Shown piece after piece: positions 54,950-60,482 of a DNA stretch of 64,000 bases (positions are counted from its first letter, which is position 1; the number at the start of each line of letters is the position of its first letter). The stretch covers positions 15,373 to 79,372 of the forward strand of contig BTUM01000032.1 of NCBI GenBank assembly GCA_045863235.1, read 5' to 3'. Source of the DNA: Candidatus Xenobia bacterium. Lineage in GTDB: Bacteria; Vulcanimicrobiota; Xenobia; Xenobiales; QWHO01. Below the pieces are notes generated by a model, which had not been told where the DNA came from, made no database searches, and was given only the letters and a program-made list of their open reading frames with translations. The position numbers were made by a program, and so were the translations under genes.

Positions 54950-54961
54950 CTTTTGGTACAT

Positions 54962-55035
54962 TGACGCGTGGCCAAGCGGTAAGGCAGCGGACTTTGGATC
55001 CGCCATCCTAGGTTCGAATCCTAGCGCGTCAGCCA
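54962..55035 (+). tRNA. tRNA-Gln(TTG)
   Basis: Acceptor stem tgacgcg/cgcgtca, D-arm gccaagcggtaaggc, anticodon arm gcgga-ctTTGga-tccgc, T-loop ttcgaat, encoded CCA. Confidence 0.97.
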
Positions 55036-55039
55036 CCTG

Positions 55040-57737: not shown

Positions 57738-59132
57738 TCAGTTGCGACTTGCCAGCCCGACGAGCTCGGGAGTTGCCTGCACCGGGTCGGGCAAGCGCCA
57801 CTCGTCCTCGCCCTCGGCCTGCGGGGCGGCCTGGCTCTTACGCCCGAAGCGGCTCAGGACGCCCCAGACGACCAGACCGCTCACGACGCCTACCAGGAAG
57901 TCGACCACCACGACCATGACGGCGGTCACAATCATGACCGTGCGGTCCTTGCTTCCTTCGGCCCACACTTCGCTCACCTCGGCCTTCTTGACCATCCCGG
58001 AGGCAACGAACAGCAGAATTCCGGCCAGGCAGGCCATGGGAACAATCTGCAGCACGCTGGCCAGGTAGGCGGCCATGATCAGCTTCAGTGCGAACTTGAA
58101 GATGCCGGCCAGGGGAGACAGGGCACCCACCTTGATGTTGGTTGCGGTGCGGGCCAGTGCTCCCGTGTGCGGGAACCCGTTGAACAGCACCACCGTGGAG
58201 TTAACCAGGCCCTGTCCCCACAGCTCCTTGTTCGGGTCGAATGGCTGGCCTTTGTTGCCAGCCAGGCGGTCGGCCATGCGCGAGCACAGCAAGCTCTCGA
58301 CGGCGGCCACGAAGACGATGGCAGCCGTGAAGTAAATCAGATCAAAGCTCCACTTGGGCCAGGTCGGAGTGGTCAGCACCAGGAAGTTGGTGGGAATAGC
58401 TCCAAACCGGTCCTGCACCAGCACCAGCCCCTTGCTGGCCCAGGCGGTGGCCGACACCAGGGTGGCCACGCCCAGGGCGATCAGGGGAGCCGGCAGAAAC
58501 GGAGAGACCCGCAGCAAGGTGCGGGTCATGAAGAAGGTGGCCAGGCCGAGAGCGATGGCGAAGAGGTTGAGCTCGCCCAGATTGGCCAGGATACCACTGA
58601 CTTTGGAGAAGAAGGTGGGCCCGAGCTTGGCTTTCAAACCCAGCAACTCACCGATCTGCGAGGTGGCGATCACCACCGCGATGCCGATGGTGAAACCCAC
58701 CACGATGGATTGAGGTACTTTGGCCACGATGCTACCTGCTCGGGCCAGGCCGAGCAGCATCAAGATGACGCCGGCGGCAAGCGAGCAGACGATCAGGGCC
58801 TCATACCCATGTGTGCCTACGATGGCGGCGATCAGGGGAATGAACGCGGCGGTCGGACCGTAGACCTGATATTTGGAGCCTCCGAAAAGGGCCCCGATCA
58901 GGCCGGCCACGGCGCCGCCCACGATACCCTGTTCAGGCCGCAGGCCGCTGGCCATGGCAAAACCCATCGCCAGGGGGATGGCGACCATGGCCACGATCAG
59001 GCCGGCGGTGAAGTCGCGAAAGATGTTCAGGGCGAGAGAGCCGCGCTTGAGGTCTTCAAAGCGGCCATCCCATGGGGTCATGTAATAGAGAAACCGATGA
59101 AAAAGCGAGAGATTCTCGCTGTTGCGACGCAT
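57738..59132 (-). CDS. SulP/SLC26 anion transporter lacking a STAS domain
   Basis: DFTAGLIVAMVAIPLAMGFA, QVYGPT, ESLL, PNKELWGQG, TGALARTATN. Confidence 0.9.
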   Translation of the reverse strand: MRRNSENLSLFHRFLYYMTPWDGRFEDLKRGSLALNIFRDFTAGLIVAMVAIPLAMGFAMASGLRPEQGIVGGAVAGLIGALFGGSKYQVYGPTAAFIPLIAAIVGTHGYEALIVCSLAAGVILMLLGLARAGSIVAKVPQSIVVGFTIGIAVVIATSQIGELLGLKAKLGPTFFSKVSGILANLGELNLFAIALGLATFFMTRTLLRVSPFLPAPLIALGVATLVSATAWASKGLVLVQDRFGAIPTNFLVLTTPTWPKWSFDLIYFTAAIVFVAAVESLLCSRMADRLAGNKGQPFDPNKELWGQGLVNSTVVLFNGFPHTGALARTATNIKVGALSPLAGIFKFALKLIMAAYLASVLQIVPMACLAGILLFVASGMVKKAEVSEVWAEGSKDRTVMIVTAVMVVVVDFLVGVVSGLVVWGVLSRFGRKSQAAPQAEGEDEWRLPDPVQATPELVGLASRN

Positions 59133-59140
59133 GGATAGGG

Positions 59141-59194
59141 GACCTCCGGAAAATGGGCTCAGATGGATGATCTGGCGAGGACTGTGCGGAGGTC
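59141..59194 (-). promoter_or_regulatory. Anti-SD/SD stem predicted to sequester the sulP ribosome-binding site
   Basis: In the mRNA, GACCUCCG (59194-59187) is exactly complementary to CGGAGGUC (59148-59141), which contains the GGAGG SD. Confidence 0.6.
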
Positions 59195-59472
59195 TACGCG
59201 GGCGGGCCGCGACGTGCGATGGGGAGGGTGCGGATACGACTGCGCTTGCAGCCGGGCTCGAGGTCGGGACGCCGATCCGAAGAGGGTGTGGCGAAACGAA
59301 CCAGGCTTGCAGGTGTGGCGGTGGCGGTCATCCGTCCATGCCGCTCGACCAGGTTCTGCTCTTGAACAGCAGTATGGTCGTGAACCAGCTCCTCCACGAG
59401 ACCGGTGGGGAAACCGCCGCAGAGGATCAGCCAGCTCAGGCTCGTCAGGAGTATGAGCGCCGTACGCTTCAC
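59194..59472 (-). CDS. Leader ORF with N-terminal hydrophobic segment and C-terminal RGPPA (candidate arrest peptide)
   Basis: VKRTALILLTSLSWLILCGG...LPIARRGPPA*; TTGCCA-18 nt-TACCCT-6 nt-GTG. Confidence 0.6.
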   Translation of the reverse strand: MKRTALILLTSLSWLILCGGFPTGLVEELVHDHTAVQEQNLVERHGRMTATATPASLVRFATPSSDRRPDLEPGCKRSRIRTLPIARRGPPA

Positions 59473-59618
59473 GCAGACAGGGTAGCAGTAAACCCCCCCC
59501 TCTGGCAACCCAAACAGGGGTCTTTCATGTAAAAAAATCTGCACGTATACACCAGACGACCAGATGCCCGCCTTTCGTTCCGAGCAGGGGATCTTCGGCC
59601 CGGCACGCAGCCCACAGC

Positions 59619-60482
59619 ATGAAGATTGGCGTCGTTTTTCCTCAGCTCGAGATCGGCTCGGACCCGGGAGGATTGCGCGAATATGCCGCTGCCGTCCGGG
59701 AGCTCGGATTCTCGCATATCCTGGCTTTCGACCATGTGCTGGGGGCTGACCCGGCCGGACATCCCGATTTCTCAGGCCCCTACACGGTACAAAGCAGCTT
59801 TCACGAGCCGTTTTCCCTGTTCGGCTATCTGGCCGCCGTGGTCCCTGAGCTCGAGCTGGTCACCGGGGTCATCGTGCTGCCCCAGCGCCAGGCGGTTCTG
59901 GTGGCCAAGCAGGCAGCCGAGGTCGATCTGCTGACCCGGGGTCAATTCCGCTGCGGAGTGGGGCTGGGCTGGAACCGGGTCGAGTTTGAGGCTCTGGGGA
60001 TGTCGTTCGGCAACCGGGCCAGCCGTTTCGAGGAGCAGATCGAAGTGCTGCGCCTCCTCTGGAGCCAGCCCTCAGTGACTTTCGAAGGCCACTATCACCG
60101 CATCCAGGCTGCGGGACTCAACCCCCTGCCCGTGCAGCAACCCATCCCACTCTGGTTCGGAGCCGTAGCCGAGCCAGCTCTGCGTCGGGCTACCCGGCTG
60201 GGTGATGGACTGTTCACTCTGGTCCCGCTGCGCAAGAGCTGGCGCTATACCCTGGAATGCCTGCGCCGGTGGCGCGAGGAGGCCGGCCTGAGCTGGGAGA
60301 GCTTCGGCATCGAATCGCGTCTTCAGGCCGCCCGGGGCGACGCCGACCATTGGCGCTGCAAGGTCGAGGAGTGGAAGGCCCTGGGAGCCAGCCACATGAG
60401 CGTCAACACCATGGGAGCCGGGCGGGAAGGTCCGGGCGAGCAGATCGCCTTCCTCCAGGAGGTGGCTCGAGCCATCCTTTAG
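59619..60482 (+). CDS. LLM-class (F420-dependent-type) oxidoreductase
   Basis: FDHVLG, HEPF, VLPQRQAVLVAKQAAEVD, GVGLGWNRVEF. Confidence 0.9.
   Translation: MKIGVVFPQLEIGSDPGGLREYAAAVRELGFSHILAFDHVLGADPAGHPDFSGPYTVQSSFHEPFSLFGYLAAVVPELELVTGVIVLPQRQAVLVAKQAAEVDLLTRGQFRCGVGLGWNRVEFEALGMSFGNRASRFEEQIEVLRLLWSQPSVTFEGHYHRIQAAGLNPLPVQQPIPLWFGAVAEPALRRATRLGDGLFTLVPLRKSWRYTLECLRRWREEAGLSWESFGIESRLQAARGDADHWRCKVEEWKALGASHMSVNTMGAGREGPGEQIAFLQEVARAIL

Follow-up and report, generated by a model that had tools for sequence, protein, structure and literature searches.

What is the role of a 92-codon open reading frame (ORF) that ends in Arg-Gly-Pro-Pro (RGPP), a motif of ribosome-arrest peptides, just upstream of a transporter gene? 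The question is raised by a 64,000-nucleotide stretch of DNA from Candidatus Xenobia bacterium (contig BTUM01000032.1), hereafter the window, in which such an ORF, the leader, precedes sulP, the gene of a SulP/SLC26 anion transporter. An earlier reading of the DNA letters (the original prediction) had proposed that an arrest peptide controls SulP translation through an RNA stem masking the Shine-Dalgarno (SD) sequence. From the sequence, and by analogy with known arrest peptides, we consider it probable that the leader is an export-coupled RGPP arrest peptide gating the translation of SulP; this gating is perhaps backed by termination. The leader ORF, the gap and sulP lie on the minus strand and are given in positions of the 64-kb stretch. 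The features on which the argument depends first are:

57738..59132, minus strand: sulP, SulP/SLC26 anion transporter of 464 amino acids (aa), transmembrane domain only (PF00916)
59194..59472, minus strand: leader ORF, 92 aa, GTG start, belonging to a new family ending in RGPP (codon changes, homologues)
59422..59457, minus strand: hydrophobic signal-like segment, residues 6-17, with Lys-Arg before it (Kyte-Doolittle in 11/11 homologues; AlphaFold helix)
59389..59418, minus strand: post-signal motif, residues 19-28, with G19, P22, G24, E27 and E28 invariant (alignment of 11)
59200..59250, minus strand: predicted arrest module, C75 to P91, with Pro90 (59205-59203) in the P site and Pro91 in the A site (invariant columns; stall geometry by analogy to ApdA/ApdP and CruR)
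59479..59508, minus strand: sigma-70-type promoter-like element with an extended -10 TG at the end of the spacer (sequence pattern, recurrence at family loci)

The leader gene, its family and its promoter

The leader is laid out as originally described: it runs from 59472 to 59194 on the minus strand with a GTG start, a TAG stop and an RRGPPA end, and 61 nt separate its stop from the ATG of sulP (59132). It is a real coding gene under purifying selection, because synonymous codon changes outnumber non-synonymous ones (13/3 against genome G003, 19/5 against G002 and 20/5 in a third pairwise comparison) and most base changes in the ORF (23 of 28) fall on third positions. A paralog on contig C17 of the source genome (G000) is 47% identical (E 8e-14) and has the same tail. 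The family alignment comprises 11 intact sequences, 33-97% identical to the window leader; the frameshifted copy L055/P0008 was left out.

No NCBIfam match was obtained for the leader, and neither it nor five homologues matched a Pfam family at E <= 1; at the same threshold no riboswitch or known RNA family (Rfam) was found in 58900-59700. The nearest named ESM Atlas clusters, DUF2946 and SecM_small (0.91-0.92), are leads only. A profile search of 301 genomes of the phylum returned strong matches in the window's genus only, plus 14 further matches at E 0.001-0.008, and 40 genomes of the order gave no strong match outside that genus. Six family proteins are present in a set of 5.8 billion sequences and seven matches among 1.84 billion representatives, a 1035-aa match with 15 short matched stretches being set aside as a repeat artefact. 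The metagenome and the genome collections hold four leader loci each, all from close relatives.

Two features of the peptide that had been pointed out from the window alone, the RGPP end and the hydrophobic N-terminus, are kept in all 11 aligned homologues. The best 12-residue Kyte-Doolittle mean of the N-terminus is 2.2-3.4; RGPP is followed by 1-7 residues, a single one in the window leader. The tail reads C-x-R-x-R-I-R-x-L-P-x-x-x-R-G-P-P in 11/11 sequences and the invariant C-terminal columns are P69, C75, R77, R79-I80-R81, L83-P84 and R88-G89-P90-P91. The strongest conservation is found in the 17 residues that would sit in the ribosome tunnel, and these include the sole invariant Cys, which precedes the last Pro by 16 residues in every homologue and would be inside the tunnel at the predicted stall. 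The second conserved block, G-x-x-P-x-G-x-x-E-E, is a candidate sensor or processing site: in 11/11 sequences 63-65 residues separate its first Glu from the last Pro, though the linker between is variable (33-55% overall identity). An HDH patch, also singled out originally, does exist at residues 31-33 of the window leader, but is found in 3/11 sequences (His31 in 7/11), and was rejected as a ligand site common to the family. The AlphaFold model of the leader is mostly unstructured (mean pLDDT 60, pTM 0.21), too weak for a fold search, and helix 2-17 is the sole part with a pLDDT of about 75.

RGPP is scarce in the long ORFs of the source genome, with 25 occurrences vs 87 for AGPP, 81 for LGPP, 107 for GRPP, 108 for PPGR and 138 for RPGP. 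At the ends of short ORFs with a hydrophobic start the counts are 6 for RGPP, 1 for AGPP and 0 for both RGPA and KGPP.

The promoter is also where it had been placed: TTGCCA (59508-59503), 18 nt, TACCCT (59484-59479) and then 6 nt to the GTG. The leader mRNA is predicted to be leaderless or nearly so, since the -10 element is only 6 nt from the start codon. The 8.36-Mb source genome has exactly two copies of this promoter pattern, each before a family leader. All seven family loci checked display TTGCCA, 17-18 nt ending in TG-n, TA(C/A)CCT and, 6-9 nt further, a start codon without SD; the extended -10 TG is thus present at 7/7. A generic sigma-70 scan flagged 0 promoters here. Near-leaderless starts appear common in the source genome: among 4029 long ORFs, 334 have TAnnnT 5-9 nt upstream of an early start, vs 63 in an in-gene control that was not composition-matched. 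An alternative 116-aa start at 59544 was not preferred; the codons it adds run across the conserved promoter hexamers and lack conservation in the copies preceding the other two targets of the family (see below).

A predicted stem over the sulP ribosome-binding site

Three elements of the RNA between leader and sulP are involved in the predicted switch:

59187..59194, minus strand: anti-SD arm GACCUCCG, whose first base is the last base of the stop codon, at +12 to +19 from the predicted P-site codon (folding)
59157..59176, minus strand: inner hairpin, CAGAU/AUCUG with flanking GC pairs (invariant in three loci while adjacent unpaired bases vary)
59141..59148, minus strand: SD-bearing arm CGGAGGUC, with the SD GGAGGU 9 nt before the ATG (sequence, folding)

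The perfect pairing put forward in the original prediction is recovered: GACCUCCG (59194-59187) pairs at 8/8 positions with CGGAGGUC (59148-59141), which contains the SD, and the CAGAU/AUCUG hairpin lies between them at 59174-59160. When the region is folded, the SD-covering helix together with the inner hairpin makes up both the minimum free energy and the centroid structure (z -3.4), and 0 of 200 shuffles are as stable.

The switch was modelled by forcing the bases under the ribosome to be unpaired (with the first Pro of RGPP in the P site and a leading edge at +15) and computing the cost of opening the ribosome-binding site (RBS). For the window sulP this cost falls from 14.2 to 6.3 kcal/mol with the footprint at RGP/P, a gain of 7.9. 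At two sulP orthologue loci, near-identical to that of the window, the gains are 9.4 and 8.4 kcal/mol. Other members of the family precede a beta-carbonic anhydrase gene or universal stress protein (USP) genes, for which the gains are 2.8 (carbonic anhydrase) and 4.7 and 4.4 (two USP loci). Hence in 6/6 intact family loci modelled the SD-covering helix is weakened by the footprint. These helices differ in sequence according to the target: at the sulP and carbonic anhydrase loci they form downstream of the stop codon, at the USP loci within the Pro-Pro-Ser codons. By comparison, 108 gene pairs with a gap of 40-90 nt display a mean gain of -0.6 kcal/mol (sd 2.5); a gain of 7.9 is reached by 1 of them, 4.4 by 3 and 2.8 by 8.

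With a footprint sliding along the window leader, the opening cost is 12-15 kcal/mol at codons 63-88, 11.8 at Gly89 and 7.5 at Pro90. The SD-occluding stem is thus predicted to open more cheaply once the P site reaches Pro90, in agreement with the mechanism first proposed. A decayed leader copy precedes a USP gene at L055:3960-4340, with a frameshift in the linker and RGPS for RGPP (59-aa hypothetical protein P0008). There the RBS gain is -0.8 kcal/mol, i.e. none.

A cassette before three targets and the readings it allows

The original prediction dealt with the leader before sulP. The leader is not specific to this gene: the family also precedes the beta-carbonic anhydrase gene of G004, about 50 nt downstream of the leader, and USP genes in the source genome, in G003 and at metagenome loci. 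The downstream families are PF00916 (SulP), PF00484 (beta-carbonic anhydrase) and PF00582 (USP), two of the three target proteins being soluble. At the three kinds of loci the targets are co-oriented and start ~52-155 nt downstream, and the leader comes with its own promoter-like element. Promoter and leader form a reusable cassette and not an appendage of sulP. As for the sulP orthologues, in which the leader was expected, it is found at two from the same genus and is missing at three homologues 53-56% identical. Two more distant leaders (P0007, P0009) may be accompanied by SulP homologues 79% and 75% identical to that of the window, a hint but no proof of a leader-sulP link in other species.

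How could the cassette act? The first step is observed: the leader ORF is under purifying selection and its RGPP is invariant. By analogy with ApdA, ApdP and CruR the ribosome would then halt with Pro90 in the P site. We infer an arrest at this codon from the ApdA/ApdP analogy, from the scarcity of RGPP in long ORFs and from the robustness of RGPP elsewhere: this motif gives the strongest and most robust arrest in several contexts, and 7/7 RAPP/RGPP-ending proteins of S. lividans tested cause arrest (PMC12992588). In the folding predictions the leading edge of the halted ribosome would cover the first half of the anti-SD arm, with the drop in RBS opening cost given above, and synthesis of SulP would be confined to the time of the stall. 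The hydrophobic N-terminus would engage the Sec pathway, and the chain would be released by the pull of normal export; as for SecM and CutF, export of the N-terminus may thus set the duration of the arrest. At the stall the G-x-x-P-x-G-x-x-E-E motif would be placed just beyond the membrane on a taut chain. Published force profiles indicate that a chain reaches the middle of the membrane at about 50 residues and has crossed it completely at 67 (bioRxiv 10.1101/310698), so that an EE pair at 63-65 residues would be just outside, a location suited to an outer-face sensor or a processing site and not to an electrophoretic handle. Two further steps are speculative. Acid, CO2/bicarbonate or energy stress might slow the release, which would fit the SulP, beta-carbonic anhydrase and USP targets; and when the RBS is closed, the untranslated mRNA might end at a hairpin in sulP codons 5-12 or via Rho.

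These parts are not equally credible. Given arrest-based control, a signal consisting of pH, CO2/bicarbonate or energy stress is a speculative proposal that we consider less likely than not, because the carbonic-anhydrase link comes from a single genome. The most complete version is rather unlikely to be right in full: a portable leaderless promoter-arrest cassette would read pH, CO2/bicarbonate or membrane energisation at the outer face via the EE motif held at a fixed distance, and would have been re-wired in one lineage onto three targets with a new anti-SD stem each time.

Several observations weigh against control of SulP by an arrest peptide, or against its generality. The stem is opened equally well by a ribosome at the last sense codon (Ala92; 6.4 kcal/mol) and by one at Pro90 (7.5 kcal/mol); folding alone therefore does not distinguish stalling from ordinary termination, and stalling would act by prolonging the open state. 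With a footprint of +12 instead of +15, the gain falls to 2.4 kcal/mol for sulP and to 0 for carbonic anhydrase. An RBS at least as closed as that of sulP is found in 14 of the 108 background gene pairs. The sulP stem displays no covariation (0/31 pairs) because it is invariant in the three sulP loci, which are close and non-independent sequences. In two RNA-library contigs the GTG is preceded by 15-18 nt of sequence, in conflict with a leaderless start unless DNA was carried over. The leader is present at 3/29 distinct SulP loci of the order, L021 near a contig end being among them, and the carbonic-anhydrase link at 1/30 loci examined in the order (1/17 in a genus search); no general link of the leader with either gene was thus found in the order. 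Genome G001, of the same genus and 90% complete, has no leader match and retains only a frameshifted sulP relic at this locus; the leader-sulP module is dispensable. A RAPP-like motif alone is also reported to be insufficient for arrest (PMC12992588). Finally, the geometry is mismatched to electrophoretic sensing by the EE pair, which was rejected: in the published profiles the force peak depends on five Asp placed at about 50 residues (bioRxiv 10.1101/310698), while the 45-55 zone of the leaders contains 0-3 acidic residues and the invariant EE is at 63-65.

In G001 (L080, contig C169, ~2690-2940) the flanking genes are the same, but the interval between them lacks the leader, the luciferase-like gene on its other side and the greater part of sulP, of which ~250 frameshifted nt are left.

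The first alternative would make transcription the main output. As demonstrated for CruR (PMC9426467), a stalled ribosome would shield a Rho site, or would keep translation running over a hairpin, and the anti-SD stem would be secondary. Two features are relevant:

59100..59340, minus strand: C-rich, G-poor stretch, up to 37 C vs 16 G per 78 nt, in the 3' half of the leader and the intergenic region (base counts)
59096..59120, minus strand: terminator-like hairpin (7 bp, -9 kcal/mol) with a U-rich tail, within sulP codons 5-12 (terminator scan)

The C-rich stretch is a possible Rho loading region and the source genome has a Rho gene, but the C-richness is due in part to Pro, Arg and Ser codons. 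The hairpin is a possible second, transcriptional layer, and sulP codons 1-12 are identical in three genomes vs 149 variable codons of 408 elsewhere, only 5 of 396 other 12-codon windows being equally invariant. Start regions are however often conserved for other reasons, and the terminator scan did not rise above the shuffle level (4 sites in 4 kb vs 2.1 +/- 1.4). Moreover, for each of the three target types a helix over the SD is predicted within range of the stall site, and a pure Rho switch has no need of one. Attenuation as the main output is consequently quite unlikely in our judgement; it is compatible, as a second layer, with an arrest peptide gating SulP translation.

Contigs covering the leader are present in 4/4 RNA libraries examined, from three studies; these libraries are unstranded and may include DNA. 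The contigs end at 59118, 59125, 59156 and 59238, and none of the four runs bridges the hairpin at 59104-59120. These ends were not counted as evidence for attenuation, since the cover is patchy and unstranded.

A second alternative dispenses with any signal: translation of the leader, with a pause at RGPP or mere termination, would hold the RBS open at a fixed rate, in a constitutive coupling or damping device. The equal opening of the stem by a ribosome at Ala92 or the stop is what such a device would produce, the three target types are functionally loose, and the leader has no ligand motif such as CXXC. Yet the invariant post-signal motif, the hydrophobic N-terminus and the 63-65 spacing in 11/11 homologues would then go unexplained, and we regard this alternative as distinctly improbable.

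That the peptide would function after its export, for example as a small membrane partner of SulP with RGPP and stem incidental, agrees with a hydrophobic N-terminus followed by a conserved motif and with the small membrane ORFs found before SulP homologues at L004 and L005, in two further genomes of the order, but is barely credible for a family found before three unrelated proteins, two of them soluble, with its strongest conservation in the tunnel-placed residues, a largely unstructured model and a terminal motif scarce in long ORFs of the source genome.

Known arrest peptides, other leaders and neighbouring genes

Small upstream ORFs (uORFs) encoding RAPP/RGPP arrest peptides have been reported before diverse genes (Fujiwara et al. 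2025, PMC12992588). The window leader shares with them a small size, RGPP one residue from the C-terminus, a co-oriented downstream gene and, putatively, an N-terminal segment of the localisation type, and by its sequence it fits this class. It differs from the members presented there in that its family is without Pfam or NCBIfam model; the parts of that paper compared here describe no mRNA switch for SulP, carbonic anhydrase or USP. Carbonic anhydrase and USP are absent from its main text, its RAPP top 30 and the supplements examined; the RGPP table (Fig. 4A) and the Appendix, which fall outside this comparison, may include this locus or an RGPP-SulP class. The pairing of such a leader with SulP had been thought undescribed. 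This is correct for the main text and the RAPP top 30, from which SulP is absent, but the table of Fig. 4B contains, among 8,420 rows listed, at least 15 RAPP ORFs before SulP genes, 13 of them with a near-terminal motif. A literature search on arrest peptides with SulP, carbonic anhydrase or bicarbonate found no paper on such control, one on SulP proteins lacking a STAS domain brought up nothing of use, and neither SulP nor carbonic anhydrase was found in the main texts of PMC9426467 or bioRxiv 10.1101/2022.11.11.516240. What is new is the leader family, whose motif is of an unusual, non-metal type and which recurs in front of three unrelated genes; the arrest class itself is already known.

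CutF of Rhodobacter capsulatus, a DUF2946-like peptide, provides a close parallel for the switch: a stall opens a stem shielding the RBS (bioRxiv 10.1101/2022.11.11.516240, 10.1101/2025.02.05.636593), as is predicted here from folding. Unlike CutF, the window leader has an RGPP tail, no Cys-rich copper motif and no DUF2946 match, and the targets are related to anions, CO2 or stress and not to copper. With CruR (Bp2923, DUF2946, Bordetella pertussis; PMC9426467) it shares a C-terminal RxPP, a putative signal-type N-terminus, a fixed spacing from motif to arrest site and a C-over-G stretch before the intergenic region, and in CruR the conserved spacing matters for regulation. CruR nevertheless has a CXXC 45 residues from its RAPP, acts by Rho-dependent termination and does not need its signal peptide for release (PMC9426467), in contrast to the GxxPxGxxEE at 63-65 residues and the predicted anti-SD helix of the present family. 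Membership of the DUF2946/CruR/CutF group was rejected in view of the missing DUF2946 match, the lack of CXXC or of a Cys-rich motif outside the tunnel, and targets that are not copper or metal genes.

SecM, ApdA and ApdP (PMC10987492, PMC10951233) resemble the leader by their signal-like N-terminus and RxPP-type arrest motif and by an SD-sequestering stem beside the arrest site, which is predicted for the leader. Unlike these and unlike MifM and VemP, it is not followed by secA, secDF or yidC, which leaves no direct feedback on the export machinery; none of these genes is downstream at the family loci and membership among the Sec/YidC monitors was rejected.

Whether RAPP/RGPP peptides outside the Sec pathway regulate their downstream genes, by which mRNA mechanism, and what force releases them are questions raised in PMC12992588. 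The family is a compact test case for them: two motifs at fixed spacing, three targets with separate anti-SD stems and one decayed copy as a negative control, all within <400 nt. If the signal is pH or CO2, the leader would represent a new mode of sensing and give a clue to what is transported by a large, uncharacterised clade of SulP proteins without STAS domain; sensing of inorganic carbon or acid stress by a nascent chain would extend the class beyond secretion, metals and redox. If the signal is another one, the family is a well-supported further member of a widespread class.

Ten short ORFs with a hydrophobic start end in RAPP or RGPP in the source genome, one of which, on contig C26, is probably spurious. 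Their downstream genes are TolC-type efflux operons, a CBS/hemolysin-like gene, a cation:proton antiporter gene and genes of small exported proteins; TolC, CBS-domain and cation:proton antiporter targets are among the classes listed as enriched in PMC12992588. The footprint gave RBS gains of 1.9-15.1 kcal/mol for 7/7 other leaders modelled, the strongest predicted anti-SD switch (15.1) being that of C56:24440-24733 (+), before a short signal-peptide ORF. Leaders ending in RGPP or RAPP precede TolC-type plus CusB/CzcA-like efflux operons at C5:49172-49492 (+), C13:118745-118407 (-) and C87:13831-13481 (-), these targets being named by inspection of the sequences and not by a family scan; the C5 and C13 leaders are His-rich and the C87 leader is Cys-rich, as expected of metal-sensing leaders. 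Further ones are found at C15:23499-23750 (+), before a CBS/hemolysin-like membrane protein, and at C51:16499-16852 (+), before a very Cys-rich exported protein.

The leader of the cation:proton antiporter (PF00999 + TrkA_N + TerB), 97 aa long, is at L082, C114:2521-2228 (-). It shares with the SulP-leader family only the last residues P-I-A-R-R-G-P-P (hhalign 78%, 22 columns), and the DNA there resembles the tail of the USP leader. This likeness suggests that the arrest tail may have been swapped between leaders as a module. The L082 leader is conserved in G002; in G001 its first 78 codons run into the C-terminal part of the antiporter, as after a deletion.

The start of the window sulP is supported by homologues aligning from residue 8, and no STAS domain was detected by Pfam, PF00916 being the only match. 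Its scores are below the curated cut-offs of DauA (241/614 bits), sulP (196/380) and BicA (129/880). An orthologue of BicA or DauA was rejected on these scores and on the lack of a C-terminal STAS in Pfam. The best PDB match is 6ki1 (E 6e-25). Of 8000 proteins scored, at least 3088 fall into its clade at E <= 1e-100, and the best 120 listed members are 431-489 aa long. At E <= 1e-90 it is present in only 6/401 genomes of the phylum and was not found in the plasmid collection; other phyla carry homologues 63-68% identical to the window SulP.

SulP transporters and beta-carbonic anhydrases often work together. A different SulP gene is located directly before a beta-carbonic anhydrase gene in three genomes of the genus (G000:C22:55213-57489 (-), G001:C32 and G002:C137), and the 800 nt checked before that of the source genome contain no RxPP leader. 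In the g4 genus, homologues of the window SulP are preceded by a conserved Trp-rich membrane ORF of 41-42 aa (L004 ~1369-1497, L005 ~1356-1484), behind a response regulator.

On the other side of the leader promoter, a divergent gene at 59619-60482 (+) encodes a luciferase-like monooxygenase (PF00296). Between the two, an AT-rich element (59520-59550), conserved in the three sulP loci, is possibly the promoter of the luciferase-like gene or a regulator site. Elsewhere in the window, the translations of the ORF list point to a tRNA-like stretch near 54960-55036 (-), their pattern being the usual one for a tRNA on the other strand.

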